From positions 109,300 through 173,299 of the forward strand of contig OX639990.1 of the NCBI GenBank assembly GCA_951828535.1: a stretch of 64,000 nucleotides of DNA, read 5' to 3'. Position numbers and translations under genes: made by a program. Origin of the DNA: an uncultured Candidatus Entotheonella sp. (GTDB lineage: Bacteria; Tectomicrobia; Entotheonellia; Entotheonellales; Entotheonellaceae). Below the pieces are notes generated by a model. The model had not been told where the DNA came from. It ran no database searches and saw only the letters and a list, made by a program, of their open reading frames with translations. Each line of letters opens with the position of its first letter. The stretch's first letter is position 1. Shown piece by piece: positions 3,833-47,507 of the stretch.

Positions 3833-6352
3833 ATGAGTACGACAAGCTTACTGTCGCCCGTCAAGCCATTGACCGCGGCGTACGACCGCGAGCGCTATGA
3901 TGACGTCGGTTTCATGACCTGCATGACCCTGGTGATGATGGGCAATTATGCTCAGACGGGGCATTTTGGCGGGCCGCTGGCCTACACGCCGTACAACGTC
4001 GCGCTGCACCTTGCCGGGCCGGATCTGGGCGGCCTGCGGTACGATTACCGCCGCCCCAAACACCCGTTCTGCGACAAGTTCATGCTCGCCGGCGGGCACA
4101 ACATCCCCACCTCCTACGCCTTGTGGATGATCATGGGCGAGGCGCTCAGCCGCAAGCACGCCGCTACCGGCGACACCCGCTACCGCGTGGACCCGCACGA
4201 CGCCATCCTGCCGATTGACGCCCTGGGCTTTCGGCGCGGCGCCGGCGCCCTGGCGACCCTCCTGAGGGACAATGACCTCGCCAATCACCCGCTCTTCGCG
4301 CAAGCCGGGCTGCGCGGCATTCGCGCCCTGGCCGGACACGCCGAAACCACCGACGTGACCAACGACGTCAACGGCGGCCCGTCCGGTATCGGCATCGCCA
4401 CCGCGGCGGGCAAGGCGGCTTTCTGGAACTTCATCGGCGCGCCGGATAGCCTGAAAATCCTGAGCATCGAGGGCGAGTTCGCCATGACCGAGGGACACGC
4501 CCAGGAGCTTAAAACCCAGGCCGTGGCGATGCAGGTCGGCAAGCGCCTGCGCGTCCTGCTGTCGCTGAACAACGCCGGCATCGACGACACCCTGATCGGC
4601 GGGGTCATCGACGCCAAATTCGACCGCTACGAAATCGAGGATCAATGGACCTCCTACGGCTGGAACGTCTTCGCGCTCGACGACGGTAACGACTACGACC
4701 AGGTTCTCGCCGCCCTGAAGACCATGGAGGACTGGGATGCCAGCGACCGGCGCCCCATGATCGTGCTCGGCAGAACGGTCAAGGGCTACTGGCCGGCGGC
4801 GGTGCAGGGCAAGATTCCCGGCTACGGCGATCAATTGGTCAGCTACGCCAGCCATCCCTACGCCATGAGGATGAACAGCGAGTACTTTGTCGCCCTCGCC
4901 GAGACGTTCGAGAAGTATTACGGGGTTGAATTCCAGGGCATCCGCGACGGTGCGGTCAGCGACACGCGGGAACGGCTGATCCAGTTTAAGACCAACATCG
5001 ACGTGGTGATGTCGGTGCTGGAGCGCAACGGGCTGGGGGACTGGCTGGCCGACCGCCTGGCGGACATCGGCGACACGGTGCACGACGACACCCCGACGCG
5101 CATCGACACGAAACGCGACCCCTTCCTCGACGACCGCCTGCAGGTCGGCAATCTGCCGGTCGAGCCGCAGACCGTCACGGTGCACAACCCGCTGTCCAAG
5201 GCCGACAAGGAAGTGGGCATCCAGCTGTTCCGTGAGGCGGGCGAGGTGGCCGGCACGCGGCGGGGGATTTCGGAGATCATCAAGTGGGTCAACTATGTGA
5301 CCGATAACCGTTTCATCACCCTCGCTGCTGACCTGTCGGAGTCGATCAACGTCGAGCACGGCAGCCTGTGGGGTCATTACCACGCCGACGACAACCCCTT
5401 GGGGACGCGCTTCAAGGCGCCGATCCAGGAGGCCGGCAACGCTTCGTCGGCGATCGGGCTGGTGAGCCAGAGCGCGAGTCTGGACCCGCAACAATTCGCC
5501 GGCCTGTGGGCGCTGAGCGGCACGTACGGCGCCTTCACGCCGCTGATGTACCTGCCGGCGCGGGTGTGGAGCCAGCAGAGCCAGGACAGCCGTTTCCGCA
5601 TGGGCGTGCTGCACATTCTGGCCGGCCATTCCGGGCCGGAGACGGCGGCGGACGCGCGCACCCACTTCGGCATCTTCGCGCCGCAGGTGTGGAAGCTGTT
5701 CCCGCGCGGCCAGGCCATCCATCTCAGCTTCTGGGACTACAACGACGTGGCACCTGGCTATTTTGCCGCTGCGGAAATCGCCGCCCGCGACCCGAAGGTC
5801 GGCGTCATTATCCTCGAAGTGGCGCGGCCCGATTTCCCCGTCGCCGACCGCAGCCAGTTTGCCGACACCGACCTCAAGGCTGCCGCTAAGGGCCTGTATG
5901 TCATCCGTGATTTCGCGCCGGGTCAGCCGCGGCACGGCTATGTGGTGGCGCAGGGGTCCAACTCCACCGTCAATCTTGTCAGAGTGATTCCGCGCCTGGA
6001 GGAGGCGGGCGTCAACGTCAAGATCATCGCGGCGGTGAGCGAAGACCTGTTCGACCGCCAGCCGGAGGCCTACCGCCGGTCGGTGCTGCCGCCCGAGGCG
6101 CGTTACGACCTCATGATGGTGAGCACCGGCACCCGGCGCATGTGGTCCGTCCGCGACGTCGGTCCGATGACCGATGCGTATTCGCTGACCTCCGATTGGG
6201 ATAATCAGTGGCTGACCGGCGGCACCGAGGCGGACGTCATCGCCGAGGCGCACCTGGATTCGGAGTCCATTTTTGCCGGTATCCAGCGCTTCGCCGCCGA
6301 GCGCGAGCAGCGTTTGAGCAGTCAGCGCGAATTGCTGGCGGCACTGGGCTGA
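3833..6352 (+). CDS. Large transketolase-like thiamine-diphosphate enzyme (839 aa), function unknown
   Basis: TK-like motifs are present: ..TGHFGGPLAYTPYNVALHL.., ..FMLAGGHNIPTSYALW.., ..GGPSGIGIATAAGKA.., and a ThDP/Mg motif variant IEGEFAMTEGHAQE-x20-LSLNNAGIDD. An AGGAGG RBS lies upstream of the ATG. The opposite-strand 874-aa ORF is a GC-shadow ORF. Confidence 0.7.
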   Translation: MSTTSLLSPVKPLTAAYDRERYDDVGFMTCMTLVMMGNYAQTGHFGGPLAYTPYNVALHLAGPDLGGLRYDYRRPKHPFCDKFMLAGGHNIPTSYALWMIMGEALSRKHAATGDTRYRVDPHDAILPIDALGFRRGAGALATLLRDNDLANHPLFAQAGLRGIRALAGHAETTDVTNDVNGGPSGIGIATAAGKAAFWNFIGAPDSLKILSIEGEFAMTEGHAQELKTQAVAMQVGKRLRVLLSLNNAGIDDTLIGGVIDAKFDRYEIEDQWTSYGWNVFALDDGNDYDQVLAALKTMEDWDASDRRPMIVLGRTVKGYWPAAVQGKIPGYGDQLVSYASHPYAMRMNSEYFVALAETFEKYYGVEFQGIRDGAVSDTRERLIQFKTNIDVVMSVLERNGLGDWLADRLADIGDTVHDDTPTRIDTKRDPFLDDRLQVGNLPVEPQTVTVHNPLSKADKEVGIQLFREAGEVAGTRRGISEIIKWVNYVTDNRFITLAADLSESINVEHGSLWGHYHADDNPLGTRFKAPIQEAGNASSAIGLVSQSASLDPQQFAGLWALSGTYGAFTPLMYLPARVWSQQSQDSRFRMGVLHILAGHSGPETAADARTHFGIFAPQVWKLFPRGQAIHLSFWDYNDVAPGYFAAAEIAARDPKVGVIILEVARPDFPVADRSQFADTDLKAAAKGLYVIRDFAPGQPRHGYVVAQGSNSTVNLVRVIPRLEEAGVNVKIIAAVSEDLFDRQPEAYRRSVLPPEARYDLMMVSTGTRRMWSVRDVGPMTDAYSLTSDWDNQWLTGGTEADVIAEAHLDSESIFAGIQRFAAEREQRLSSQRELLAALG

Positions 6353-6395: not shown

Positions 6396-6745
6396 ATTGT
6401 TCCATGCAGGCGGGAACCCCCCCAACCCCCTTCGTCAGGGGGCGGCCGCGGGGGAAACATGTAACCCCCCAACCCCCCTTGTCAGGGGGGCGGCCGTGGC
6501 GGGACACATTTCCGTCACCATGACATGGCCTGCAAGGCTTGCCTCCGGCTTAAATGGGGGCCATGGGGGATTCCGAAAACAGGCTGTTCAAAGCCCCCAA
6601 ATCGTCATTCCGGGCTTGACCCGGAATCCAGGGATCCCGGATCCAGCCGAATTGTCGGATGACGCTGCGCTAATCCGATCTACCCTCTCTCCTGGGCTGA
6701 GACCGGGCCGGTAGGAGCGGGTCTCAAGCCCGTCCGTCGATCCCG
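6396..6745. repeat. Cluster of short GC-rich hairpin (REP/MITE-like) repeats in the TK-like/uvrB intergenic region
   Basis: Two direct ~38-nt copies of CCCCCCAACCCCC(C)TT(C)GTCAGGGGG(G)CGGCCG(C/T)GG lie at about 6415-6453 and 6465-6503. An 8-bp hairpin ATTCCGGG-cttga-CCCGGAAT lies at 6607-6628. A further GC hairpin lies at about 6712-6735. Confidence 0.5.
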
Positions 6746-6774
6746 GCGTTCCCATCCGTTGCCCCGAGACCGCC

Positions 6775-8781
<2,007 letters not shown>

Positions 8782-12833: not shown

Positions 12834-13097
12834 ATGCGCGTATCACGGGAAGCCTTTCTGGCCCCCTGGCAAGCCGCCGATTATGCCGGGTTGAAGCTTG
12901 AGGCGATCTACGAAATGCTCGAATCGGGGGAGATTACCGGGGAGCAGACCGACGGACTCTGGCGCATCCGCAAGTCGGTGCTGGATGCCTGGCTGGACGC
13001 CGAGGTCGAGCCGGAAGAGTTGGAGCGATTGACCACCAAGATGAGCCGCCTGACGGAAGAACAGGCGAAACAGGTACTGGAGCAGGCCCAAAGCTAG
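12834..13097 (+). CDS. Small excisionase/MerR-like (HTH_17-type) DNA-binding protein with acidic coiled tail
   Basis: The sequence ..AADYAGLKLEAIYEMLESGEITGEQTDGLWRIRKSVLDAWL.. fits the HTH_17 pattern. An AAGGAA RBS lies 6 nt upstream of the ATG at 12834. Confidence 0.6.
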   Translation: MRVSREAFLAPWQAADYAGLKLEAIYEMLESGEITGEQTDGLWRIRKSVLDAWLDAEVEPEELERLTTKMSRLTEEQAKQVLEQAQS

Positions 13098-14052: not shown

Positions 14053-14602
14053 CACCATCTGACGTGGGAACCGGGGGATCTGGGAGACTGAGGGAGATGC
14101 AAACAGCGGACAGTCGCGGAATGGGAGGTCGGTGGGCAAGAAGCGTCGTATCCGCCGCCGGAAGTTGCTGGAGATAATGGAACGGCTCATGCCGCAGCAG
14201 CGTCCCGATGCCCTATCGCCAAGTAGGACGTGGGTGGACGCCCTGTGACCTCGCCGTCATGCTTCTCGCCCAGCGTCAATCGAAAGCCCCTTTGGCGTCG
14301 CCGCAGAGGGCTTCCTATCAGACGTCCAGGGCCTCAGGCGGTTCGTGAGGGGTGGAGTGAGCGGAGTGAAGCCGCAACCCGTGGGCCTCTCGGAAGCCGC
14401 CTGCACGAGCCAGCGGCGGCGTCACCGAATGGGCTTCTCTGAGCGCGCTCCAAGCCGGTAGCAGGAAGGGGGTGTGCACGCTGCAGCCGGCTCGGCGCTG
14501 TCGCCTCAAGCAGGGCATTGGGGAGGCTGGGGGGAACCCCGCTTGGCCCGGCGCCGTGCAAGCGGGCCCATGCAGGCGCCGGAGGCCCCCCGCTGGCCCA
14601 CG
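14053..14602. repeat. Conserved non-coding module, copy 1 (orphan A segment + X + B), 3' of fibre gene 1
   Basis: Shares the segment CACCATCTGACGTGGAACCGGGGG..GGGAG..AGGGAGATGCAA..CGGAATGGGA with 16036.., 17185.. and 18783... Shares the B core CTTCCTATCAGACGTCCAG (14311-14329) with 16158-16176 and 17437-17455. No ORF is conserved between copies. Confidence 0.75.
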
Positions 14603-15940
14603 TCAATTGGACTGGAATAGCCCACCGGCCCTCCAGTTGGACGGCTGTCCAGCCAGACGGTTTTCGCCGCCGCTCACGCTGGCAGCCCAGCCGCCGGCCT
14701 CGTTGTCCCGACCGCCGCTGACGCTGGAAGCCCAGCCTCTGGCCTTGTTGTCCCGACCGCCGCTGACGCTGGAAGCAATTGAGCTGGCCTCATTGTATCT
14801 GCCGCCGCTAACGCTCGCAAAATTCCCACTGGCCTCGTTGTATCTGCCGCCGCTGACGCTGGCAAAAGTACCGCTGGCGTCATTGTACTGACCGCCGCCA
14901 ACGCTGGCCCGAGAGCCGCTGGCCGTGTTGCTGCCGCCGCCGCTGACGCTGGTATACTCCCCGCTGGCCTCATTGTTTTTGCCGCCGCTGACGCTGGCAT
15001 AAGCGCCGCTGGCCTTGTTGCCAAAACCGCCGCTGACACTGGCTTGAGAGCCGCTGGCCTCATTGTTCCGACCGCCGCTGATGCTGGCATTACTACTGTT
15101 GGCCGTGTTGTTGGAACCGCCGCTGACGCTGGTACTACTGCCGCTGGCGGTATTGCTGCTGCCGCCGCTGACGCTGGCATAATCGCCGCTGGCCTCGTTG
15201 CTTTCACCGCCGCTGACGCTGGCATAAGTGCCGCTGGCCTTGTTGGAGTCACCGCCGCTGACGCTGGCAAACTCCCCGCTGGCCTCGTTGCTGGAACCGC
15301 CGCTGACGCTGGCCCAAGAGTGGCTGGCCTCGTTGCTGGCACCGCCGCTGACGGTGGCAGTATCGCCGCTGGCCTTGTTGACGGAACCGCCGCTGACGCT
15401 GGAATAATGGCCGCTGGCTTCGTTGTTAAAACCGCCGCTGACGCTGGCATACGATCCGCTCACGATGTTGTTGTAGCCCGCCACCAAGCCGCCATAACTC
15501 GAATAGCTGTGCAGCGAACCAATCACCACATTATGCGAGCCCTCGCGAGCAGAGGAGCCACTACTGTCACTCTCATTGTAGCCAATGATCAGATTGCCGA
15601 CGCCGTTGCTGCTTTCAGTGTTTCCCTGGCCGTTTTGCACGTGCACGTTGCAGCCCGTAAAGATGACATCGTCGACCGAGCCCGCTCCCGACGCCGTGGT
15701 CATGCAGTCGGGCATGCCTGCTGCCGCGCCGTTAATCAGGCTTTGCAGCGTAGCATCCTGGGCTTGCAGCGCGCCAATTTGGGCCTGCAGCGTATTATTC
15801 TGGGCTTGTAGTGCGCCCATCTGGGCCTGCAACGCGTTAATCTGGGCTTGCAACTGGCTATGGGTCTGCGCCGCCGCTGGCAGGGCGGCGAGACCACCGC
15901 ACACCAACGCCAATGCCAGGGTCTTCATGAGTCGGGTCAT
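14603..15940 (-). CDS. Secreted repeat protein 1: signal peptide + LQAQ heptad coiled coil + Cys-containing domain + 18 x 14-aa SVSGGxxNxASGxx repeats (YadA-head/Hep_Hag-like)
   Basis: The N-terminus MTRLMKTLALALVCGGLAALPAAAQ is a signal peptide. It is followed by LQAQINALQAQMGALQAQNNTLQAQIGALQAQ and then ..DCMTTASGAGSVDDVIFTGCNVHVQNG..NLIIGYNE... Next come 18 tandem 14-residue repeats, and the protein ends ..NWRAGGLFQSN. A GGAG RBS precedes the ATG at 15940. Confidence 0.8.
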   Translation of the reverse strand: MTRLMKTLALALVCGGLAALPAAAQTHSQLQAQINALQAQMGALQAQNNTLQAQIGALQAQDATLQSLINGAAAGMPDCMTTASGAGSVDDVIFTGCNVHVQNGQGNTESSNGVGNLIIGYNESDSSGSSAREGSHNVVIGSLHSYSSYGGLVAGYNNIVSGSYASVSGGFNNEASGHYSSVSGGSVNKASGDTATVSGGASNEASHSWASVSGGSSNEASGEFASVSGGDSNKASGTYASVSGGESNEASGDYASVSGGSSNTASGSSTSVSGGSNNTANSSNASISGGRNNEASGSQASVSGGFGNKASGAYASVSGGKNNEASGEYTSVSGGGSNTASGSRASVGGGQYNDASGTFASVSGGRYNEASGNFASVSGGRYNEASSIASSVSGGRDNKARGWASSVSGGRDNEAGGWAASVSGGENRLAGQPSNWRAGGLFQSN

Positions 15941-16403
15941 GCTCAACTCCTTCACAGGGTCGTGTTTGTGTTGGTCTTACGAATTGGAGGCCGTGCATTA
16001 TAGAGGTAAGGTCTGATCAAGGACACCGGGGGTGTCACCATCTGGCGTTGAACCGGGGGGTTTGGGAGGATCAGGGAGATACAACAGCGGGCAGTCGCGG
16101 AATGGGAAGACGACGGCGAGCGCCAATCGAAAGCTCCTTCGGCGTCGCCGCGTGGGGCTTCCTATCAGACGTCCAGGGTCTCAGGCGGCTCTTGAGGGGT
16201 GTAGCAAGCGCCGTGAAGCCCAGCCCCCGTGGGGCCTCTCGGAAGCCGCCTGTTCGAACGGCCGGATTCGTCCCTGCATGGGCTTCTCTGGCCGCCCCGG
16301 AGCCGGCTGCAGGGGACGGGAGGTGTACCGCTGCAGCCGGCTCGGCGCTGTCGCCTCGAGCAGGGCATTGTTGGGGAGGCCGGCGGGAACCGCTTGGCCC
16401 ACG
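15941..16403. repeat. Conserved non-coding module, copy 2 (5'UTR/promoter of gene 1 + A + B; lacks the ~125-nt X segment)
   Basis: Aligns with 14053-14602 and 17091-17622. Relative to the other copies, the segment between ..GGAATGGGAAGACGACGG and CGAGCGCCAATCGAAAG.. is deleted. Confidence 0.75.
15997..16020 (-). promoter_or_regulatory. Candidate promoter of fibre gene 1 (conserved TATAAT)
   Basis: The minus strand reads CCTTGATCAGACCTTACCTCTATAATGCACGG. TATAAT is conserved before all three paralogues, about 55 nt upstream of the ATG. The -35 is poor (TTGATC at only 12-nt spacing). Confidence 0.4.
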
Positions 16404-17090
16404 TTACTTGGTCTGGAAGAGCCCGCCGGCCTTCCAGTCGTGCTTCCCGGAAGCCGTCCGGTTACGGCCGCCGCTGACGCTGGCAGCAAAGCCGCTGGCC
16501 GTGTTGAGTTCACCGCCGCTGACGTTGGCATACCTGTGGCTGGCCTCGTTGAGTTTGCCGCCGCTAACGCTGGCAGCAAAGTCGCTACCCTCGTTGTTAA
16601 AACCGCCGCTGACGCTGGCAAAATCGCCGCTGGCCTCATTGTCTTTGCCGCCGCTGACGCTGGCAAAATGGCCGCTCACCGTATTGCCCCAACCCGCCAC
16701 CAGACCGCCATAACTCAAATAGCTGTGCTGAGGGCCAATCACCACATTATGCGAGCCAACGCGGACGGGGAAGTCGGCAAGAATCTCATTGTAGCCAATG
16801 ATCAGATTGCCGACGCTGTTGCTGCTATCGGTTTCTCCCTGGCCGTTGCGCACGTGCACGTTGCAGCCCGTAAAGATGACATCGTCGACCGAACCCGCTC
16901 CCGAAGCCGTCGTCATGCAGGCCGGCAGTCCCGATGCCACGACGGGACTCCAGCTTTGCAGGGCGGTAATCTGGGCTTGTAGCGCGTCAATCTGGTCTTG
17001 CAACTCCTTCGGGGTCTGTGCCGTCGCTGGCAGGGCAGCAAGCCCACCGCACACCATCGTCAATACCAAGGTCTTCATGAGTCGGGACAT
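16404..17090 (-). CDS. Secreted repeat protein 2 (paralogue; 5 x 14-aa repeats)
   Basis: Signal peptide MSRLMKTLVLTMVCGGLAALPATAQ is followed by a short LQDQIDALQAQITALQ coil, ..ACMTTASGAGSVDDVIFTGCNVHVRNG.. and 5 SVSGGxxNxASG repeats. The protein ends ..HDWKAGGLFQTK. Confidence 0.8.
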   Translation of the reverse strand: MSRLMKTLVLTMVCGGLAALPATAQTPKELQDQIDALQAQITALQSWSPVVASGLPACMTTASGAGSVDDVIFTGCNVHVRNGQGETDSSNSVGNLIIGYNEILADFPVRVGSHNVVIGPQHSYLSYGGLVAGWGNTVSGHFASVSGGKDNEASGDFASVSGGFNNEGSDFAASVSGGKLNEASHRYANVSGGELNTASGFAASVSGGRNRTASGKHDWKAGGLFQTK

Positions 17091-17622
17091 GATCAGCTCC
17101 TTCACACACAGGATTTGGCTTGGCAGTACGAATGGGAAGCCAGGCATTATAGAGGTAAGTTCTGATCAAGGACACCAGCGGCGTCACCATCTGACATGGA
17201 ACCGGGGGGTTTGGGAGGATCAGGGAGATGCAATAACAGATAGTCTCGGAATGGGAAGACAACGGTAAGAACCACCGCACCCACCGCTGGAAGTTGCAGA
17301 CAATGGAATGGCTCATGCCGCGGCCGCGGCCGGATGCTCTATCGCCGAGCGGGGCGTGGCTGGACGCCCAGTGACCTCGCCGTCATGCTTCTCGTCGAGC
17401 GCCAATCGAGAGCCCCTTCGTTGTCGCTGCAGAGGCCTTCCTATCAGACGTCCAGAGCCTCAGGCGGCTCGTGAGGGGTGGAGCCCCCACTCGTGGGCCT
17501 CTCGGACGCCGTCTACACGAGCGGGCGGAGTTGTCACCGTATGGGCTTCTGTGAGCGCGCCCGAAGCCGCTTGCAGGGACGGGGGTGTGCCGATGCAGCC
17601 GCCCGAAACCTGTTGGCCTACC
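17091..17622. repeat. Conserved non-coding module, copy 3 (5'UTR/promoter of gene 2 + A + X + B)
   Basis: Aligns with 14053-14602 throughout, with indels that are not multiples of 3 (for example 74 vs 70 nt between GGAATGGGA and CTCATG). It has a shorter internal loop in the B hairpin region. Confidence 0.75.
17146..17170 (-). promoter_or_regulatory. Candidate promoter of fibre gene 2 (conserved TATAAT)
   Basis: The reverse complement of 17146-17151 is TATAAT, in the same context (CTTGATCAGAACTTACCTCTATAATGCC) as the other two genes. Confidence 0.4.
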
Positions 17623-18687
17623 CTAGTTGCTCTGAGAGAGCCCGCCGGCCCGCCAGTTGTGCAAGCCGGAAGCCGTCCGGTCAGAGCCGCCGCTGACGCT
17701 GGCCCGATCGCCGCTGGCCTCGTTCATATAACCGCCGCTGACGCTGGCAGCAACGCCGCTGGCCGTGTTGTTTTTGCCGCCGCTGACGCTGGCAAACGCC
17801 TCGCTCACCGTATTGCTATAGCCGGCCACCAAACCCCCATAACTCGAATAGCTGTGGTCAGAACCGATCACCACATTATGCGAGCCATTGCGGACCAGGG
17901 AGCCAACATGCTCATTGTAGCCAATGATCAGATTGCCCAGGCCGTTGTTGCTATCGGTGCTTCCATGGCCGTTTTGCACGTGCACGTCGCAACCCGTAAA
18001 GATGACATCGTCGACCGCACCGGCACCCGGAGCCGTGGTCATGCAGTCCGGAACCGCAGGTAAAATGGCAAAATCGCCGCTGGCCGTGTTGTCCTGACCG
18101 CCGCTGACGCTGGCAGCATAGCCGCTGGCCACGTTATAGCTACCGCCACTGACGCTGGCAGTCCAGCCACTTGCTTTGTTGAACTGGCCGCCGCTGACGC
18201 TGGAATATTCCCCGCTCACCGTATTACCCCAGCCCGTCACCAAACCGCCATAACTCGAATAGCTGTGCCCAGGACCGATCACTACATTATGCGAGCCGCT
18301 GCGGGCGGGGGAGCCACTGCCCCCAATTTCATTGTAGCCAATGATCAGGTTACCCACGCCGTTGCTGCTATCGGTGCCTCCATGGCCGTTTTGCACGTGT
18401 ACGTTGCAGCCCTTAAAAATGACATCGTCGACCGCACCGGCACCCAAAGCCGTGGTCATGCAGTCGGGAATGTCCGCTGCCACGCCGTTAATCAGGCTTT
18501 GCAGCGTCGCCATCTGGGCCATGTGGGCTTGTTGCAGCGTGGCCATCTGTCCTTGTAGCGCGCCCATCTGGGCTTGCAACGCGTTAATCTGGGCTTGCAG
18601 TTGGCTATGGGTCTGCGCCGTAGCTGGCAAAGCGGCGAGCCCGCTGCACAGCATCGCCAATACCAGGGTCTTCATGAGTCGTGTCAT
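17623..18687 (-). CDS. Secreted repeat protein 3 (paralogue; duplicated head module, 3 + 3 repeats)
   Basis: It has signal peptide MTRLMKTLVLAMLCSGLAALPATAQ and an LQAQ coiled coil. The ..DCMTTA.GAGAVDDVIF.GC.VHVQNGHG..NLIIGYNE.. module occurs twice, each time followed by 3 SVSGGxxNxASG repeats. The protein ends ..HNWRAGGLSQSN. Confidence 0.8.
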   Translation of the reverse strand: MTRLMKTLVLAMLCSGLAALPATAQTHSQLQAQINALQAQMGALQGQMATLQQAHMAQMATLQSLINGVAADIPDCMTTALGAGAVDDVIFKGCNVHVQNGHGGTDSSNGVGNLIIGYNEIGGSGSPARSGSHNVVIGPGHSYSSYGGLVTGWGNTVSGEYSSVSGGQFNKASGWTASVSGGSYNVASGYAASVSGGQDNTASGDFAILPAVPDCMTTAPGAGAVDDVIFTGCDVHVQNGHGSTDSNNGLGNLIIGYNEHVGSLVRNGSHNVVIGSDHSYSSYGGLVAGYSNTVSEAFASVSGGKNNTASGVAASVSGGYMNEASGDRASVSGGSDRTASGLHNWRAGGLSQSN

Positions 18688-18854
18688 GCTCAACTCCTTC
18701 ACAGGGTCGTGTCTATGTTGATCATACGAATGGGAGGCCGTGGATTATAGAGGCAAGGTCTGATCAAGGACATCAGCGGCGTCACCATCTGACGTTGAAC
18801 CGGGGGGTTTGGGAGGCTCAGGGAGATGCAACAGCGGCCAGCCGCGGAATGGGA
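18688..18854. repeat. Conserved non-coding module, copy 4 (5'UTR/promoter of gene 3 + truncated A)
   Basis: Same sequence as 15941-16100 and 17091-17260. Homology ends after GGAATGGGA at 18854. Confidence 0.7.
18744..18768 (-). promoter_or_regulatory. Candidate promoter of fibre gene 3 (conserved TATAAT)
   Basis: The reverse complement of 18744-18749 is TATAAT, in the same context as genes 1 and 2. Confidence 0.4.
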
Positions 18855-18958
18855 ATCCCCCATGGCCCTCGTTCAGGCGGGAGTATCAAAACTGTGGGGC
18901 AATCAGGCATCGCGTGGTTCAGCTTCCGCTGCCCTATCTCCGGTTTTGGCATTCCCTC

Positions 18959-30809: not shown

Positions 30810-30875
30810 GTCTGCCATCGTAGAAAGCAAGTACGTTCCCTTTTGGGGAACGATTTCACTCTTCAAGGAGGGATT

Positions 30876-32639
30876 ATGTCCAGTAGAACCTTCACGGCCC
30901 TTGCGGTCGCGTTCGTGGTCAGCCTGGCCATGGCGTTCAGCGCCGCGGCCCAGGATATTCCACCGACTCCGACGCCGGGACCGATAGCGAATTACAGTAC
31001 CGTGACGGACGACCGGCTGGCCAGCCAGGAAGCGCATAACTGGCTGCAGATTCGCGGCAACTACGAGGGCTGGATGCATAGCCCCCTGGATCAGATCAAC
31101 ACCGGCAACGTGGCGAACCTGCGGCCGTCGTGGATGTTCTCGACTGGCGTGGTGGAAGGCCACCAGGCACCGCCGGTTGTCAACGACGGCATTATGTTCG
31201 TGACCACGCCGAGCAACCAGACCATCGCCCTCGACGCGGCGACCGGTGCGCAGATCTGGCGCTACCGGCGTGAGAAGCCCGAGGATCTGGTTGAGATTCA
31301 CCCGACCAACCGCGGCCCCGGCCTGTACGGCGACCAGGTGTTCGTCGTGACCACGGACTGCTTCCTGGTAGCCCTCGACGCCAAGACCGGCGAGGTGAAT
31401 TGGGAAGTGGCGGTCGACGACTACCAAAAGGGTTACTACACGACCCTGGCGCCCCTGACCGCGCGGGGCAAGGTGCTCGTTGGCGTATCCGGCGGCGAGT
31501 TCGGCATCCGCGGCTACGTGGCGGCCTACAATGTGGACGACGGCACCCAGGCGTGGCGTACCTACACAATTCCCGCCCCTGGCGAGCCGGGCCACGAGAC
31601 CTGGACGGCCGACTCCTGGCAGACGGGCGGCGGCTCCTCCTGGGTCACCGGCATTTTTGACGTCGAGACCGGGATCGTCTACTGGGGCGTTGGCAACGGC
31701 GCACCGTGGGCAGGCGACCGGCGCGGCAGCCTGGACAACCTGTACACCACTTCCGTTATCGCCCTGAACCTCGAAAGCGGCCAGATCATCGGCCACCACC
31801 AGTACCATTGGAACGATTCCTGGGACTGGGATGAGGTTTCTCCTCCGATTCTCACTGATCTCACCTACGGCGGCCGTACCTTCAAGGCCCTCGTCAACGT
31901 GGCCCGTAACGGCCACATCTTTGTGCTGGAACCCTCCCCGGAAGGTCCGATTGGGTTCGTGGATGCGTGGAACTACGTGTACAGCGACGTGGTCACCGCC
32001 ATCGATCCCGAGACCGGGCGCTTCACCTATGACGACGCCCACTGGCCGAAGACGAACGTGAGCGCGCCGTTCTGCCCCTCCCTGTGGGGCGGCAAGGACT
32101 GGCCGTACGTGTCCTACAGCCCGGCCAGCGGCCTGCTCTACATCCCGGCCAACGAGAACATCTGCAGCACCATGGCCGGCGATGAGTCGGAATATGTTGC
32201 CGGTGAGTTGTGGCTCGGCGTGAACATCCCGGAACTCGTCGAAGGCTTCTACCTGCGTGAAGGCTGGGAGCACATCGGCGAAATTCAGGCCTGGGACGTG
32301 GGCAACAAGAACGAGGTGTGGAAGCACACCTTCAAGCACCACAACTGGGGTCCGATCCTGTCCACCGGCGGCGGCCTGCTGTTTGCCGGCGGCACCAACG
32401 ACCGCATGTTCCGCGCCTTTGACGCGGCAACCGGCGCGGTGCTGTGGGAGTACCCCACCAACTCCGGTATCGGCGCTCCCCCGAGCACCTACTCGCTGAA
32501 CGGCAAGCAGTACGTCGCCGTGGCGTCCGGCTGGGGTGTCGACGCGGAACGCAAGCAGGACATCTTGCGGCGGGAGATTCCGGGTTACGCGGAACACGTG
32601 CCGCAGGGTGGTGTCGTATGGGTCTTCGAGCTGCCGTAA
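30876..32639 (+). CDS. PQQ-dependent alcohol/methanol dehydrogenase family quinoprotein (8-bladed propeller)
   Basis: It has a signal peptide MSSRTFTALAVAFVVSLAMAFSAAAQ, ..HQAPPVVNDGIMFV.., ..SGGEFGIRGY.., ..WGVGNGAPW.., and ..HWNDSWDWDEVS... An AAGGAGGG RBS is present. Confidence 0.9.
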   Translation: MSSRTFTALAVAFVVSLAMAFSAAAQDIPPTPTPGPIANYSTVTDDRLASQEAHNWLQIRGNYEGWMHSPLDQINTGNVANLRPSWMFSTGVVEGHQAPPVVNDGIMFVTTPSNQTIALDAATGAQIWRYRREKPEDLVEIHPTNRGPGLYGDQVFVVTTDCFLVALDAKTGEVNWEVAVDDYQKGYYTTLAPLTARGKVLVGVSGGEFGIRGYVAAYNVDDGTQAWRTYTIPAPGEPGHETWTADSWQTGGGSSWVTGIFDVETGIVYWGVGNGAPWAGDRRGSLDNLYTTSVIALNLESGQIIGHHQYHWNDSWDWDEVSPPILTDLTYGGRTFKALVNVARNGHIFVLEPSPEGPIGFVDAWNYVYSDVVTAIDPETGRFTYDDAHWPKTNVSAPFCPSLWGGKDWPYVSYSPASGLLYIPANENICSTMAGDESEYVAGELWLGVNIPELVEGFYLREGWEHIGEIQAWDVGNKNEVWKHTFKHHNWGPILSTGGGLLFAGGTNDRMFRAFDAATGAVLWEYPTNSGIGAPPSTYSLNGKQYVAVASGWGVDAERKQDILRREIPGYAEHVPQGGVVWVFELP

Positions 32640-34710: not shown

Positions 34711-35490
34711 ATGCAACAAGACGATTTGCTGGAGATTGGGGGTAAAACGTTCGGTTCACGGCTCATCGTCGGCACCGGCAAATATCCCACCATGGACCTG
34801 ATGCAGCAGTGCCACGAGGCTTCCGGGGCGGACATGGTGACCGTCGCGCTGCGGCGCATGGAACTGCCGGACAGCAAGCAAACGCTGCTGGATTACATCG
34901 ACCGCGACCGTTTCACCATTTTGCCCAACACCGCCGGGTGCTACGACGCCGAGTCCGCTATCCTCACCGCCCGGCTGGCGCGCGAGGCGGGGCTGTCGGA
35001 CTTCATCAAGCTGGAAGTGATCGGCGACCCGAAGACCCTCTTCCCGGACGTGGTGGATTTGCTGGAAGCCACCCGCGTGCTGGCCAAGGAAGGCTTCATC
35101 GTCATGCCCTACACCAACGACGACCCGGTGATGGCCAAGAAGCTCGAGGACGCCGGCGCCGCGGTCGTCATGCCACTCGGTGCGCCGATAGGCTCCGGCC
35201 TGGGCATCTGCAACCCCTACACCGTCCGGCTGGTTATGGAAGCGGTGCAGGTGCCGGTGATCGTCGACGCGGGCGTCGGCACGGCCTCCGACGCCGCGGT
35301 GGCCATGGAACTCGGTGTGGACGGCGTGCTGATGAACACCGGCATTGCCGGCGCCAAGGACCCCCTGGCCATGGCCCACGCCATGCGCATGGCTGTGGAG
35401 GCCGGCCGCCTGGCTTTCAAGGCCGGGCGTATCGAGCGTAAGCTCTACGCCACCGCCAGCAGCCCGCTGGAGGGCGTCATTGGCACCTGA
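34711..35490 (+). CDS. thiG: Thiazole synthase ThiG
   Basis: It has ..[11 protein letters not shown].., ..TVALRR.., ..ILPNTAGC.., ..KLEVIGD..TLFPD.., and ..[44 protein letters not shown]... Confidence 0.95.
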
Positions 35491-35603: not shown

Positions 35604-36260
35604 ATGCCAGTTAACACCCGGCAGAGGAGGGGAACGCATGGCCCCGGCTTTCGCCTCTACGTGGTGACCGACCGGCACCAAACCGCCGGGCGCCCCTTGG
35701 CGGAAGTGGTTGCGGCGGCGGCGCGCGGCGGGGTGGGAGCTGTTCAGTTGCGGGAGAAGGATCTCAGCGCCCGTGAACTCTACGATTTGGGCGCGTGCCT
35801 GCAAGAGGTGTTAAGTCCCTACCGGGTGCCGCTGCTGATCAACGACCGCCTCGACGTCGCCCTGGCCCTGCACGCCGCCGGCGTTCATTTGGCTGGTCAT
35901 TCCCTGCCCACCCGAACGGCCCGCAGCATGCTGGGACCCGACAAGCTTCTCGGCGTTTCCACCCACAGCCTCGACGCGGCGCATCAAGCCGCGGAAGAAG
36001 GCGCCGACTTCGTGGTCTTCGGTCCCGTCTTCGCAACCCCCTCCAAACTCGCCTACGGCCCGCCGCAGGGCCTGTCGCAACTGGCCGCGGTGGTACGGGA
36101 CGTTTCCATCCCGGTACTGGCCATCGGCGGCATCACGCCCGTCAATCTCCCGCAAGTGCAGCAGACCGGAGCGCACGGCGTCGCCATGATCCGCGCCGTC
36201 CTCGCAGCGCCCGATCCGTGCGCGGCGACCCAGCAGTTGTGTCGTTTACTTGCCGAATAA
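35604..36260 (+). CDS. thiE: Thiamine-phosphate synthase ThiE
   Basis: It has ..LYVVTDR.., ..GGVGAVQLREKDLSAREL.., ..LINDRLDVALALHAAGVHL.., ..GVSTHS.., ..GADFVVFGPVFATPSK.., and ..VLAIGGI... Start is uncertain. Confidence 0.85.
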   Translation: MPVNTRQRRGTHGPGFRLYVVTDRHQTAGRPLAEVVAAAARGGVGAVQLREKDLSARELYDLGACLQEVLSPYRVPLLINDRLDVALALHAAGVHLAGHSLPTRTARSMLGPDKLLGVSTHSLDAAHQAAEEGADFVVFGPVFATPSKLAYGPPQGLSQLAAVVRDVSIPVLAIGGITPVNLPQVQQTGAHGVAMIRAVLAAPDPCAATQQLCRLLAE

Positions 36261-38618
36261 AATCTGAACAATCGCGGTGAGGACGGCGTCCGTGTCAATG
36301 CGGTGCTGGTGGTACAGCTCCTGCACCGAGCCGGTCTGGCCGAATTGCACCACGCCCAGGGGCTTGAGCGGGGCATTGAAGACGGTGCCTAGCCAGGCGA
36401 GCGTCAGGGGATGTCCGTCGAGCAGGGTGATCGCCGGCGTTTGGCGGTCGGCGGCGGGAAGCAGTTCGTCGAGGTAGGAAGACCCGGCCCCGGAACCGGC
36501 GGCCTCGAAGTGGTCGCGGAACAGGCGGTCGGCGCTGGTGACGTTGATAACGTTGACGTAAATACCGTCCTCGCAAGCCAGTTCGCTGGCCTGCAAAGCC
36601 TCCTCTAACATGACGCCGGACGCGAACAGGTGCACGCGCGGACGCTGGGCGTAGTCGTGCTCCTGGCGGTAATCGCGCAGCCAATAGCCGCCGGCCAAGA
36701 CCTGCCGCCGCCATTCCGGGGTCGATCGGCGCACCGCCTGCGTAATCGGCCGTGTCGACAGCCGCAGATACAGGCTCTGGCCGTTTTCGCGGTCCGCCAA
36801 TTGCCGCAGCCCCCAGCACATCATGCACTCCAACTCGGCGGCGTAGGCCGGCTCGTAGTAGATCAGACCCGGCATGCCCATGCCCACCAGCGGCGTGTAG
36901 ATCGATTGGTGCGCGCCGCCTTCGCGGTTCAGGCTCAGCCCCGACGGGGTGCCCGCAAAGAGGAACTTCGCCCCCACGTAGGTCGCATAGGTTAGAGCGT
37001 CCAGGCCGCGTGCCACGAAGGGGTCGTACACGGTGCCGACGGGCAGCAACAGTTCGCCGTGGAATTCGTAGGACAGGCCCAGCATGGTCAGGGCCAGGTA
37101 GAAATTATTCTCCGCGATGCCGAGCTCGATGTGCTGGCCCGAGGCGGTTTCCTGCCAGCGCAGCAGGCTGGTGACGTCGTACTTGGCCCAGTAGTTGGGC
37201 TTTTCGGCGGGCGCATAAATGCCGCGCTTGTTGATCCAATTGGCCAGATTTGTGGAAACCGCCACGTCGGGCGAGGTGGTGACGAGGCGCGCTGCCACGT
37301 CCTCGTATTCGTTCAGCGCCACCAGGATATGGCCGAACGCCCCCTGTGTGGCGGCGCGCTCGGGAAAGGGGATGTCCAGCGTCTCGGGAATCGGCGGCGG
37401 CACGCTCGGCGGTGCCGGAGCAGGGCTTCGGCCATTCCGATCGGTGATCTGTCGCTGTTTGATCCAGCCAGCAATCGGGTGCGGCTCTTCGTAGCCGTCC
37501 CATTCGTGGCCCTCGGCGATGCCGTGCTGTTCTTGCAGCGCGGCGATGTGCGCCGACGTCAGCTGGGCGGCGTGGTTGTCGATGTGCCCGGCAATCGGCA
37601 GCCCCCAGCCCTTGATGGTATAGGCCATGATGACGACCGGCCGGTCGGCGATGGCCTCAGCGGCGGCGAACGTCTTGAGAATCTCCGGGATGTCGTGCCC
37701 GCCCAGGTTCATCAGCAGGTCCTTGAGGGTGACGTCGGGCACGTCGGCCAGGACGCTGCGCATGTCGGCGTCGTTCAACTGGCCCCACTCGACGACGGCG
37801 CGGCGAATTTCCGAGCCGTCGGCGTTCAGCAGGGTCTGGTACTCGGCGTTGCTGCAGGAATCGATCCACTGCCGTAAGCCCTCACCGCCCGGCCGGTCGA
37901 AAAAATCCAGCTGTTGGCTGCCGAACTTGAGCCACAGCACCTCCCAGCCCTTGGCCTCGAACAGCCGCGCGATCTGCGTGACCTGGCCCTCCGGGGCGAT
38001 GTGGTCGAGGCTCTGCCGGTTGATGTCGATGATCCACCACAGGTCGTTCAGGCCGTAGGCGCTGGCCTCGCCGATGGCTTCCGGGACGTTGCCCTCGTCG
38101 ATTTCGGCGTCGCCGACCAGGGCGATGTAGCGCCCTTGACCGTCGGTCTTGCCGAAGTGATCGCGTACGTAACGCTGCGTCAGGGCGCCGAAAACCGTCG
38201 CCGCGGCGCCCAGGCCGACCGAGCCGGTGGAAATCGTCACGCCGTCCGGGTCCTTGGTGCGGCTGGGATAGGCCTGCAGGCCGCCGAAATCGCGCAGGGT
38301 GGTCAGCATGTGGCGCGGCAGGTTGCCGAGCAGATACTGAATGGCGTGCAGCACCGGCGCGGCGTGCGGCTTCACCGCCACGTGGTCTTCGGGGCGCAGG
38401 ATGCCGAAATACAGCGCCGTCATCAAATTGACCGCCGAGGCGCAACTCGCCTGATGCCCGCCGACCTTGAGGCCGTCCGGGTTCGGGCGAATCTTGTTGG
38501 CGTAGTGGATCATGTATGTCGACAGCCACAGGACGCGCTGCGAGATGGTTTCCAGGGTAGTGATAATTTCGGGGTCAGCCGCGGCAGGCGGGGCAGAGGG
38601 GGGTGACATAATGGCCAT
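36246..38618 (-). CDS. AceE-type (homodimeric) 2-oxoacid dehydrogenase E1-like ThDP enzyme, no E2/E3 partner nearby
   Basis: 791 aa. The blocks ..GGHQASCASAVNLMTALYF.., ..LVGDAEIDEGNVPEAI..WWIIDINRQSLD.., ..FEAKGWEVLWLKFG.., and ..LNREGGAHQS..IYYEPAYAAELE.. parallel E. coli AceE blocks (GGH.AS, GDGEMDEPES..NCNLQRLDG, LNGEGLQHEDGHS..YDPAYAYE). Confidence 0.85.
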   Translation of the reverse strand: MAIMSPPSAPPAAADPEIITTLETISQRVLWLSTYMIHYANKIRPNPDGLKVGGHQASCASAVNLMTALYFGILRPEDHVAVKPHAAPVLHAIQYLLGNLPRHMLTTLRDFGGLQAYPSRTKDPDGVTISTGSVGLGAAATVFGALTQRYVRDHFGKTDGQGRYIALVGDAEIDEGNVPEAIGEASAYGLNDLWWIIDINRQSLDHIAPEGQVTQIARLFEAKGWEVLWLKFGSQQLDFFDRPGGEGLRQWIDSCSNAEYQTLLNADGSEIRRAVVEWGQLNDADMRSVLADVPDVTLKDLLMNLGGHDIPEILKTFAAAEAIADRPVVIMAYTIKGWGLPIAGHIDNHAAQLTSAHIAALQEQHGIAEGHEWDGYEEPHPIAGWIKQRQITDRNGRSPAPAPPSVPPPIPETLDIPFPERAATQGAFGHILVALNEYEDVAARLVTTSPDVAVSTNLANWINKRGIYAPAEKPNYWAKYDVTSLLRWQETASGQHIELGIAENNFYLALTMLGLSYEFHGELLLPVGTVYDPFVARGLDALTYATYVGAKFLFAGTPSGLSLNREGGAHQSIYTPLVGMGMPGLIYYEPAYAAELECMMCWGLRQLADRENGQSLYLRLSTRPITQAVRRSTPEWRRQVLAGGYWLRDYRQEHDYAQRPRVHLFASGVMLEEALQASELACEDGIYVNVINVTSADRLFRDHFEAAGSGAGSSYLDELLPAADRQTPAITLLDGHPLTLAWLGTVFNAPLKPLGVVQFGQTGSVQELYHQHRIDTDAVLTAIVQILFGK

Positions 38619-38640
38619 CAACGTGCCTCTTCTCAAACGC

Positions 38641-39528
38641 TCAACAGTCGTCTTCCAACAAACGGGCAACTTCCGAGCGTAGGGTGTCGAGGTAGGCCGA
38701 ATACGAATGGTCTTGATAAACCAGTAGTTGTTGCGATACCCCGGTGTCGTACCAGTCGACCCATCCGGGCTCGTCCTGGCCGCGAAACGCCGCCATTTCC
38801 ATCGGCACGCCGATAATGTCGTACAGATCGGCGACGTACTTGCGCCCGGTCGTCTGCCAAGTCGATCCGCCGGCGATGTTCAGGGTTTTGCCGCGCGCCG
38901 CCGGGGTGATCAGCGCCTTGTACAGTGCGGTCACCACGTCGTCGCGCTGTACCATTTCCAGGCGCTGCTCGGCGGTGAACGGCCATACCTCGGGAGGTTC
39001 CTGCAGAACCGGCACGGCGATGCCGGCAATGCGCAGCACCACCACGGGCAGGGAGGATGCCCGCACCAAGCGCTCGCTGGCGATCTTGCTTTCGGCGTAG
39101 AGGTCGAGGGCCGTTTGGGGATGCTCCACCCCCAGCGGCGGCGCCTCGGCAGTGGTGTCGCCATAGGTACTCACCGACGAGCTGAACACCAGCACGGCGT
39201 CGCTGGCGGCGGCTTGCATGGCGCTGATGATGGTCGCGGTGCCGTCCACGTTGACGGCGAACGTCCGCGACCGGTCGGCCTCACTCGCCGGCGGCAACAG
39301 TGCCGCCAAGTGCAGCACGCTACTCACGCCCTGCACCGCGGCTTCGACGTGCTCCAGCTTCGTAATGTCGCCCTTAACGACTTCGATTCCCGTTTCGCCT
39401 TCCAGGCCCGTAAAGTCGCACACCGGCAGGTCGAAAACGCGCACCGCATAGCCATCGGCGCGGCAGCAGGCTACCAAGCTGCGGCCGACGCTGCCGGCGC
39501 CTCCGGTGATCAGGATCGGACCGCTCAT
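38641..39528 (-). CDS. NAD-dependent epimerase/dehydratase (extended SDR)
   Basis: It has a Rossmann motif ILITGGAGSVGRSL and the catalytic motif ..YAESKIASE.. (YxxxK). Confidence 0.85.
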   Translation of the reverse strand: MSGPILITGGAGSVGRSLVACCRADGYAVRVFDLPVCDFTGLEGETGIEVVKGDITKLEHVEAAVQGVSSVLHLAALLPPASEADRSRTFAVNVDGTATIISAMQAAASDAVLVFSSSVSTYGDTTAEAPPLGVEHPQTALDLYAESKIASERLVRASSLPVVVLRIAGIAVPVLQEPPEVWPFTAEQRLEMVQRDDVVTALYKALITPAARGKTLNIAGGSTWQTTGRKYVADLYDIIGVPMEMAAFRGQDEPGWVDWYDTGVSQQLLVYQDHSYSAYLDTLRSEVARLLEDDC

Positions 39529-46900: not shown

Positions 46901-47507
46901 TGGACAAGCCGTAGGCCAACAGCCGGTTGGGATCGACCTCGACTTGATACTGCTTGACGAAGCCGCCGATGCTGGCGACCTCGGAGACGCCCGCAACCGA
47001 CGTGAGCTCGTAGCGCAGGTACCAATCCTGCATGCTGCGCAGTTCCTGCAGGTCGTAGGTGCCGGTGGTGTCCTGCAGCACGTATTCATACACCCAGCCG
47101 ACGCCGGTAGCGTCCGGGCCGAGGCTGGGGGTGACGCCGGCGGGCAGGCGACCGGCAACAAAGTTGAGATACTCCAGGACGCGCGAACGTGCCCAGTAGA
47201 TGTCGGTACCGTCCTCGAAAAGGATGTAGACAAAGGAAAAGCCGAAGAAGGAATACCCCCGCACCACCTTGGCGTATGGCACGCTCAGCATGGCGGTGGT
47301 CAGCGGATAGGTTACCTGATCCTCAACCACGCGCGGCGCCTGACCGGGGTACTTGGTGTAGATGATGACCTGCACGTCCGACAGGTCGGGGATGGCGTCC
47401 AGCGGCGTTCCCTGCATGGCCAGCATGCCGCCGAGGATCACGAAGACCGTGACGAGCACGACCATGAAGCGGTTACGCATGGACCAGGAAATAATGGCTT
47501 CGATCAT
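43983..47507 (-). CDS. cusA: CusA/CzcA-family heavy-metal RND efflux pump (enlarged, 1174 aa)
   Basis: The N-terminus MIEAIISWSMRNRFMVVLVTVFV..GTPLDAIPDLSDVQVIIYT..G.AP..VE.QVTYPL is HME-RND-like, with 12 TMS architecture. The Cu/Ag call rests on the Met/His-rich neighbours. The start overlaps the cusB stop (ATGA). Confidence 0.85.
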   Translation of the reverse strand: MIEAIISWSMRNRFMVVLVTVFVILGGMLAMQGTPLDAIPDLSDVQVIIYTKYPGQAPRVVEDQVTYPLTTAMLSVPYAKVVRGYSFFGFSFVYILFEDGTDIYWARSRVLEYLNFVAGRLPAGVTPSLGPDATGVGWVYEYVLQDTTGTYDLQELRSMQDWYLRYELTSVAGVSEVASIGGFVKQYQVEVDPNRLLAYGLSIQQVRRAIQRSNDDVGGKLVEMGETEFMVRSLGYIRSREDLEQVVVAVDSMGTPVLLKNIAAIQQGPELRRGILEWNGTGEAVGGIVVMRYGENALEVIRNVKAKLRSLQKGLPEGVEIVAGYDRSNLIKRAIHTLQTKLIEEMLVVAAICVIFLLHVRSALVAIVTLPVGILMSFLMMYPLGINANVMSLGGIAIAIGVMVDASVVLVENAHKHLERDRGRKSHAAIMLDAAKEVGPALFYSLLIITVSFLPVFSLQEQSGRLFKPLAYTKTFAMAASALLAITIVPVLMTFFVREHVLDPQVPRRQRRWVWLAALAGPPLLVIVAGVAGMELPEWSLVAGLLASGVAFICLARQRILPEARNPLSRFFIRVYHPFIRLVMGRRKSTLLLAVAVLLVTLYPLSRLGSEFMPPLNEGDFLYMPTTLPGISITKAKELLQQTDKIIQRFPEVLTTHGKIGRAETATDPAPLSMIETTITLRPKVEYELIPVRRVFADWPGWLKKPLTFLWPEVQRGEVAHEWRKKRLERFFSSWPGWLKVPLAWIWPEERYLTMQELAHDLDLAIQFPGLTNAWTMPIKTRIDMLSTGIKTPVGLKLMGPDLDVLSDLGAQIEAVVRDIPGTLSVYAERVTGGNYLDFTIDRTQIARYGLTVGDVQDVIMTAIGGMNVTFTVEGLERYPVNLRYSRELRDDIDRLKRVLVPTPAGAQVPLVQLADFAIRKGAASIKSENSRQTAWIYVDLKGVDVGSYVRRAMAIVDRGVELPQGYSMVWSGQFEYMEKARRTLRVIVPVTLVLIFILLYLHFHSVAEAMIVMASLPFALVGGVWLLYVLDYHLSVAVVVGFIALAGLAAETGVVMLVYLDESYRRRHAEGRMRSAADLRNAIIEGAVERVRPKLMTVSTTLIGLLPVMWGTESGSEVMKRIAAPMVGGLVSSAILTLVIIPVVYDMWKRLALRHAAPADSQPVTTEVSNTVE

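Follow-up and report, generated by a model that had tools for sequence, protein, structure and literature searches.

The 64,000-nucleotide stretch of DNA analyzed here (the window) comes from a soil bacterium, an uncultured Candidatus Entotheonella sp. (GCA_951828535.1, contig OX639990.1, positions 109,300 to 173,299) and carries three paralogous genes on its minus strand. The listing of open reading frames (ORFs) and the alignment of the proteins showed that all three share one layout, which is, from the N- to the C-terminus, a Sec signal peptide, a Q/A/L heptad coiled coil, beta-roll cap layers, tandem repeats and a WRAGGL motif (Table 1). An earlier note on this DNA had described three same-strand paralogues of 446, 228 and 354 aa; the three ORFs are there and the last two lengths are right, but the first counted a stop codon and should read 445 aa. 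The alignment recovered the common elements listed in that note, namely the near-identical signal peptide (M[TS]RLMKTL..C.GLAALPA.AQ) followed by LQAQxxx heptads, the conserved cysteine module (CMTTA.GAG.VDDVIF.GC.VHV..G.G.T.SSN.VGNLIIGYNE...GSHNVVIG..HSY.SYGGLV.G) and the end W[RK]AGGL.Q. The repeat numbers given (18, 5 and 3+3) were also right, as was the duplication of the head module in gene 3, and repeat analysis of the window spaces the copies of this internal duplication 411-417 nt apart. The cysteines are always spaced C-x17-C, in every head module of the three proteins. The mature chains, of 20-41 kDa, are acidic (pI 4.8-5.4), with a coiled coil of 3-6 heptads and heads rich in Ser (13-24%) and Gly (17-20%), and they end 10-12 residues past the last beta-roll layer.

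Signal peptidase I would cleave between LPA[AT]A and QT, and a predicted C-x17-C disulphide would pin the linker to layer 1. We also considered whether Cys14 could be the modified residue of a lipoprotein. By inspection, without a predictor, no lipobox [LVI][ASTVI][GAS]C stands at the end of the signal peptide: the residue preceding Cys14 is V, V or L (M also in close relatives), and the Cys is not conserved in distant relatives. This reading was dropped, as the preceding residues do not fit a lipobox and an AxA signal-peptidase-I site followed by Q comes after. The proteins had been called secreted, which holds as far as export by the Sec signal peptide goes; passage of the outer membrane and a role as adhesin, S-layer component or ice-binding protein are hypotheses.

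The repeat period is exactly 45 nt, or 15 residues, instead of the 14 residues reported before, with the consensus ASVSGGxxNxASGxx and variable positions 7, 8, 10, 14 and 15 in each layer. This period points to a repeat of the UspA1 type and not of the 14-residue YadA type. UspA1, from Moraxella catarrhalis, is the one head of a trimeric autotransporter adhesin (TAA) with 15-residue layers bearing an extra Gly (PMC9543794). Results of Pfam searches agree with this: UspA1_rep (PF18792) matched gene 1 with E=4.6e-18 (64.2 bits, gathering score 27), the scores for gene 2 (24.9 bits) and gene 3 (19.2 bits) being below the cutoff, and LbR_Ice_bind (PF21300), the beta-roll of a grass antifreeze protein, matched gene 1 with E=6e-12 (45.9 bits, gathering score 30), with gene 2 (24.1 bits) and gene 3 (28.5 bits) just under it. 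Among all PDB sequences, only two real relatives were found, the UspA1 head (3pr7, E=1.8e-31 with gene 1 and 5e-29 with the family profile; 3ntn matches too) and the Lolium ice-binding protein (3ult, E=3e-5 to 2e-2). At the level of sequence, the match to the UspA1 head is far beyond chance, and both have the 15-residue period, the GG, an Asn, an Ala and an aromatic residue in the last position. Homology of the repeats to TAA head repeats, which the earlier note had sensed in calling them YadA-head-like, is therefore supported by these comparisons, specifically for the UspA1 type. Judged by these matches, the window proteins are members of UspA1_rep and LbR_Ice_bind at the domain level only.

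The conserved cysteine module is as well conserved as had been described, but it is no separate domain. It resolves into four layers, with the inner strands VIFTG, NLIIG, NVVIG and GLVAG, and the LbR_Ice_bind model aligns across it and over the first repeats, so that the module belongs to the same beta-roll, as its N-terminal and more hydrophobic part.

Side by side, the two repeats read STIGGGxxNxAxGxY in UspA1 and ASVSGGxxNxASGxY in the window. As in the UspA1 head (3pr7, 3ntn), each layer is a 15-residue turn of a left-handed parallel beta-roll (LPBR) with a double or triple Gly in the same register, and as in UspA1, a signal peptide and a coiled coil belong to the same polypeptide. The differences concern what surrounds the head. 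UspA1 runs from head to neck to long stalk and ends in a C-terminal YadA beta-barrel anchor, whereas the window proteins have the stalk first, then the head, and neither neck nor anchor; Ser replaces T/G at the trimer-core positions, and UspA1 has no equivalent of the C-x17-C pair, of the four cap layers at the N-terminus or of the W[RA]AGxL end. The 'inverse' order stressed before is real in that the stalk precedes the head, but it is less unusual than implied; the true difference lies at the C-terminus, where the chain stops directly behind the head and neither neck, stalk nor anchor follows. Pfam searches found no YadA anchor in the three proteins at E<=1, nor a neck (HIM), SLH, PEP-CTERM, sortase signal or chaperone domain, NCBIfam returned nothing for them, and no coiled coil lies downstream of the head, which is C-terminal. 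The anchor, the sortase signal and the chaperone had already been reported missing. Considering that the defining anchor and the head-neck-stalk grammar were looked for and are absent, the window protein resembles a TAA head on a stalk and yet, by its domain content, is not a TAA.

We compared the window proteins with three further systems. The C-terminal head of BpaC from Burkholderia pseudomallei is also a long series of almost identical LPBR layers, in which positions 5 and 7 are taken by small hydrophilic residues (T/S/N/G; PMC9543794), although its layers are of 14 residues in a 42-residue super-repeat, BpaC is a canonical anchored TAA, and PDB searches with the window proteins or the family profile gave no direct sequence match to it. 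The Lolium perenne protein LpIBP (3ult) is likewise a left-handed beta-roll, with 14-15-residue coils of NxVxG-like half repeats; unlike the window proteins, it is a monomer of the plant apoplast and has no coiled coil, cap or C-terminal motifs. In fibres of the BclA type, an N-terminal attachment is followed by a trimeric stalk and a distal globular head. Some family members carry collagen or SLH modules, as collagen-like and SLH surface fibres do, while the window heads, compared here from general knowledge, are beta-rolls instead of the C1q/TNF-like jelly roll of BclA-type fibres and come without collagen or SLH.

We asked whether the heads could assemble around a three-fold axis. In TAA beta-rolls, inner-strand positions 5 and 7 (V and I of NSVAIG) face this axis (PMC9543794; PMC2373917). 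Gly5 of the 15-residue repeat was mapped to the invariant Gly at position 8, the two flanking inner-strand residues to LPBR positions 5 and 7, and residues were counted over 120 relatives. In layer 2, position 5 is L in 114/119 sites and position 7 is I/V in 116/119; in layer 3, position 5 is L/V/I in 136/139 and position 7 is V/I/L in 125/139; in layer 4 the residues are L/F/I (position 5) and A/V (position 7). The 1,214 15-mer layers have S at position 5 in 85% and at position 7 in 83% of cases. It would be strange for a monomeric roll to carry conserved hydrophobic stripes on its outer face, while in a trimer such stripes would form the core, and BpaC shows that a trimer core lined with Ser/Thr is physically viable (PMC9543794). 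The heptad stalk helix and the closest solved homologue, a trimer, point the same way, as do the trimer-forming modules present in relatives (described below). Homotrimeric assembly of the window proteins is thus what we infer from their sequences and those of their relatives.

Structure prediction was of limited help for the fold. AlphaFold2 (AF2) modeled the full 228-aa gene 2 protein as a monomer with a mean pLDDT of 66.5 (alignment of 47 sequences) and its head alone with 60.9 (74 sequences). The gene 2 model has a helix at residues 27-53, its best-scoring part, then short strands about every 7 residues, in agreement with the earlier description of a coiled coil preceding the repeats. Foldseek against the PDB with the monomer models gave no match at E<1, the first list containing assorted beta-solenoids only. 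As the monomer models were too weak, the fold was assigned by sequence homology.

The family proved very large and is not peculiar to this genome. A word-indexed search returned >2,426 relatives from many phyla, all annotated as hypothetical, and an exhaustive phmmer search over 1.84 billion cluster representatives (clusters at 50% identity) gave 13,022 matches at E<=1e-3, 7,486 at <=1e-10 and 1,526 at <=1e-30, including multi-head giants of up to 2,979 aa. A scan of bacterial genomes, one per species, found >564 loci. At least 15 phyla are covered: the lineages include Ca. Entotheonellaceae, Binatia, Chloroflexia, Anaerolineales, Nitrospinota, Nitrospiraceae, Myxococcota, Planctomycetota, Armatimonadota, Thermoleophilia and the candidate phyla radiation (CPR; Giovannonibacteria, Parcubacteria), with Pseudogulbenkiania subflava DSM 22618 as a cultured carrier, and the habitats are marine sediment, groundwater (CPR), sponge and worm symbioses and soils. 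The family is therefore very large, widespread and not claimed by any characterised family, as had been concluded for the window proteins: NCBIfam and literature searches gave nothing and all source names read 'hypothetical'.

Cap layers, 15-mers and a C-terminal motif, [DN]W[RA]AGxL[FS][EQ]x[ND], form a constant core; among the 120 best matches, at least 74 end in this motif. The N-terminal part is modular. In the window proteins a coiled coil follows a signal peptide there; some relatives (P0029, P0113) have SLH plus a coiled coil, and in others (P0027, P0034, P0044, P0071) collagen Gly-X-Y runs directly precede each head. The two heads of a close relative (P0004) are separated by twelve IxxNTxx heptads, the N@d motif known from TAA stalks, and one protein (P0131) carries a C-terminal Peptidase_S74 intramolecular chaperone. 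All three kinds of module (collagen, N@d coiled coil, S74 chaperone) form trimers, and together with the hydrophobic core positions of the first layers they point to a homotrimer. Among 77 diverse family members, none has a YadA anchor and 49 match LbR_Ice_bind. All-against-all clustering of 1,102 neighbour ORFs from 76 loci revealed no recurrent neighbour gene other than paralogues. Tandem copies (2-5) occur in 15/68 related loci.

The array itself changes rapidly. In the nearest genome, a metagenome-assembled genome of a Ca. Entotheonellaceae bacterium (OZ250173.1, locus L002; phylum Ca. Tectimicrobiota), the flanks are 95.9% and 94.2% identical in nucleotides to those of the window, while the array is longer (7.4 kb with four to five genes; the window has three genes in 4.9 kb), and its pieces match at 72-84% in mosaic fashion, with one 290-nt segment at 91%. 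The array is tandem and rapidly reshuffling, a hypervariable island between flanks conserved at 94-96%. In L002 the fibre array is separated from DUF2461 by a PRiA4_ORF3-family gene (PF07929, E=3e-21; 6596-7153, plus strand) that the window lacks, which hints at mobile-element activity at the island border. Contigs of other metagenomes join the paralogues in other combinations, with many alternative joints in related populations, which are only suggestive given the short-read assembly of repeats. Elsewhere in this 3.6-Mb genome (locus L001, 10001-10873) there is a fourth paralogue, P0010 (290 aa, 8 layers), which is a lone copy surrounded by housekeeping genes and has a TNTTNI (N@d-like) motif ahead of its head. 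The reshuffled array of OZ250173.1, the tandem copies of related loci and this fourth paralogue all argue for diversification by duplication and recombination.

The duplicated unit exceeds the genes, as about 150 nt upstream, with a putative promoter, and about 300 nt downstream are repeated too (Table 1). A perfect TATAAT ends 57 nt ahead of each ATG, with the 6-bp palindrome GACACCcccGGTGTC just upstream, and the Shine-Dalgarno sequence of gene 1 sits 6 nt before its ATG. The upstream element is 87-93% conserved in the OZ250173.1 array, above most of the coding sequence there, and is still recognisable (78%) before the fourth paralogue. With a conserved upstream element at every copy, each gene is apparently an independent transcription unit with a shared control region, and the putative promoter may be activator- or operator-controlled. 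Control by sigma-54 was considered and rejected: NtrC-type regulators are present in 12/76 loci without being consistently adjacent, and no sigma-54 promoter lies upstream of the genes. The 3' element is 81-82% identical between copies and 82-83% identical to the relative in OZ250173.1; as a structured RNA it was discarded, since RNAalifold on the three copies gave little covariation and Rfam no match.

Table 1. Features of the three fibre genes and their repeated flanks (positions in the window).
Feature	Position (nt)	Strand	Description
Gene 1	14603-15940	-	445 aa from ATG after AAGGAG Shine-Dalgarno
Gene 1 signal peptide	15869-15940	-	aa 1-24
Gene 1 coiled-coil stalk	15707-15868	-	aa 25-78, six LQAQxxx heptads
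Gene 1 beta-roll head	14606-15706	-	aa 79-445, C79/C97, four cap layers
Gene 1 repeats	14639-15448	-	18 layers of 15 aa; C-terminus NWRAGGLFQSN
Gene 2	16404-17090	-	228 aa
Gene 2 signal peptide	17019-17090	-	
Gene 2 short stalk	16920-17018	-	about 3 heptads
Gene 2 head	16407-16919	-	C58/C76, cap layers, 5 layers of 15 aa; C-terminus DWKAGGLFQTK
Gene 3	17623-18687	-	354 aa; C-terminus NWRAGGLSQSN
Gene 3 signal peptide	18616-18687	-	
Gene 3 stalk	18463-18615	-	
Gene 3 head module A	18070-18462	-	C76/C94, 3 layers
Gene 3 head module B	17626-18069	-	C215/C233, 3 layers; directly joined, no second stalk
Upstream element, gene 1	15956-16125	-	TATAAT -10 at 15997-16002, palindrome GACACCcccGGTGTC
Upstream element, gene 2	17114-17265	-	TATAAT at 17146-17151
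Upstream element, gene 3	18703-18855	-	TATAAT at 18744-18749
Shared 24-nt motif TTGATCAGAnCTTnCCTCTATAAT	15997-16020, 17146-17169, 18744-18767	-	3 copies in the window, 0 expected by chance
Partial upstream-element copy	14053-14126	-	74 nt, 85%; no gene behind; lost-copy relic or edge of duplication
3' element, gene 1	14230-14602	-	
3' element, gene 2	16119-16400	-	
3' element, gene 3	17356-17601	-	

The neighbours of the array are housekeeping genes, with UvrB, UvrC, RlmD, a small HTH_17 gene and a gene of the PEP-mutase family on one side, and DUF2461, MlaC, a TolC-like protein and an ABC ATPase on the other, and genes farther away in the window are ordinary metabolic and transport genes. 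The HTH_17 gene (excisionase-type helix-turn-helix; 12834-13097, plus strand), between RlmD and the PEP-mutase-family gene, is kept in the relative and has no integrase nearby. Long Ala/Pro/Arg-rich ORFs run off-frame or antisense over the fibre genes (14674-15450, minus; 15044-15811, 16032-16982 and 17308-18063, plus) and are by-products of GC-rich periodic sequence; antisense ORFs of a similar kind clustered across 11 loci. Elsewhere in the window we noted a TPP riboswitch (Rfam RF00059; 34273-34388, plus strand; 65.9 bits, gathering score 54.3) upstream of an ORF at 34711-35490, two large transketolase/E1-type paralogues (3833-6352, plus; 36246-38669, minus), an RND pump (43983-47507) and a PQQ dehydrogenase (30843-32639).

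Taken together, we consider it somewhat better than an even bet that the three genes encode extracytoplasmic, trimeric, lollipop-shaped fibres with a variable binding surface, from an uncharacterised and very large bacterial family. The signal peptide, the paired cysteines and the SLH-anchored relatives argue for the extracytoplasmic location. Several points weigh against this interpretation. The AF2 monomer models are mediocre (pLDDT 61-66) and Foldseek gave no significant match, although results obtained with models of a monomer would bear neither way on a trimer. The serines at the core positions could form a solvent-exposed ladder on a monomer, as in the grass ice-binding protein 3ult. The putative promoter is poorly spaced at -35, where its one -35-like hexamer, TTGATC, sits 12 nt upstream of TATAAT, and a run search for transcript or proteome support for the array returned only metagenome contig sets of unknown kind, and no support. 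Neither the window, nor the 76 loci, nor the 77 relatives contain an anchor, secretion system or conserved partner gene that would explain display or release by a diderm cell. Literature searches on the Pfam names, on LPBR with collagen or coiled coil, on anchorless or SLH-bearing YadA-like heads and on Entotheonella adhesins found nothing on the family; a rotifer ice-binding paper met on the way concerns DUF3494 and is unrelated.

A location in the periplasm, where a coiled-coil/beta-roll oligomer would serve as envelope spacer, scaffold or binding protein and not as a surface fibre, is in our opinion unlikely. It would account for a Sec signal accompanied by neither a secretion partner nor an anchor in the outer membrane, the periplasm would allow a disulphide, and the coiled coil has a weak likeness (E=0.003) to TolA_bind_tri, a periplasmic trimerisation module. 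Yet the relatives that are wall-anchored by N-terminal SLH, that belong to CPR or that have collagen stalks resemble external fibres, a locus that turns over rapidly and forms multi-copy arrays is typically one for exposed proteins, and the sole solved homologue with strong repeat similarity is the head of a surface adhesin.

We find it quite improbable that the proteins bind ice, minerals or crystals as free-standing beta-rolls like the Lolium perenne antifreeze protein, with the serine ladders S2, S4 and S12 as a flat, lattice-matching face. The outward Ser positions are indeed conserved, and the LbR_Ice_bind match, above the gathering score for gene 1 and shared by the diverse relatives counted above, as well as the match to 3ult, would fit such a role. 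The similarity to UspA1 is nonetheless far stronger (1.8e-31 vs 3e-5), trimerising modules are fused to the heads throughout the family, and a monomer would expose its hydrophobic cap-layer residues (positions 5 and 7). Moreover, the opposite face bears charged E/K residues and the habitats of the relatives are not specifically cold.

The third alternative, a split trimeric autotransporter in which TAA-like passengers would use a beta-barrel anchor encoded elsewhere, has very little chance of being right. TAA-type head repeats and a TolC-like outer-membrane gene 1.6 kb away could suggest it, but YadA_anchor is absent from the three proteins, their neighbourhood and the 77 diverse relatives, no gene recurs beside the family in the 76 loci, and TolC/MlaC are syntenic housekeeping genes, unlinked to the family elsewhere. 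In addition, the family is present in monoderm-type lineages (Chloroflexia, CPR, Thermoleophilia), which have no outer membrane. As for phage tail-fibre genes or a prophage remnant, to which we give next to no credit, the trimeric fibre-like architecture, the one giant relative ending in Peptidase_S74 and the family members on eight IMG/VR contigs are outweighed by the absence of any tblastn match in the 50,697 phage genomes of INPHARED and of any PHROG match for the window proteins, by the ratio of 8 in 2.9 million viral contigs to >564 loci in bacterial genomes, by neighbours such as UvrB, UvrC, RlmD, PEP mutase, DUF2461, MlaC and TolC, by Sec signal peptides, which tail fibres do not have, and by an unremarkable GC content. 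The phage homology or prophage context that the earlier note had advised to look for was thus sought and not found, and the window proteins are not phage fibres. On two of the phage-like IMG/VR contigs (L079 7914-8615, L080 7833-8837), the family members have an N-terminal hydrophobic stretch, resembling a signal peptide or transmembrane segment, and adjoin ORFs read by eye as ThyX and ribonucleotide reductase, just before structural-looking ORFs; these members may be phage-borne envelope proteins rather than tail fibres.

For the trimeric fibres that we favour, the following mechanism can be proposed. Each gene would be transcribed from its own copy of a shared promoter type, and the product would be exported by Sec, cleaved by signal peptidase I and folded oxidatively with the C-x17-C staple. 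Trimerisation would then proceed through the heptad stalk and the hydrophobic cap layers, bringing three left-handed beta-rolls around a three-fold axis, with L/V/I at LPBR positions 5 and 7 of the first layers as a hydrophobic core. From there, the 5-18 serine-cored layers might zipper up around a hydrophilic core filled with water, as in BpaC, and the C-terminal cap with its Trp would close the structure. The exposed variable positions 7, 8, 10, 14 and 15 may bind something or simply coat the cell, so that the head would offer a binding or coat surface variable in length and sequence, in the cell envelope or outside, and tandem duplication and recombination between paralogues would change the repertoire. 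Within this scheme, the gene structure, the homology of the repeats, the lack of an anchor, the breadth of the family and the variability of the locus are observed, and cleavage, disulphide, trimer, surface exposure and binding are inferred.

To our knowledge, left-handed beta-roll heads have been described almost only from a grass antifreeze protein and from pathogens, in their anchored autotransporter adhesins. The window proteins place this repeat in a simple stalk-plus-head protein without anchor, of a family that extends to lineages without an outer membrane. As a tentative proposal, which we hold to be possible but rather less than probable, the family could represent a so far unrecognised, pan-bacterial class of trimeric beta-roll fibres, either anchorless or attached by their N-terminus. 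Such fibres would be the free-living counterpart of TAA heads, and perhaps their evolutionary source, and would act from CPR to Proteobacteria as a hypervariable surface or adhesion module that recombines in tandem arrays. Characterising one member would assign a function to many envelope proteins of soil, sediment and symbiont genomes that now count as 'hypothetical', would bear on the origin of TAA heads and would supply a beta-roll scaffold that is small (about 20 kDa when mature) and varies naturally in length.

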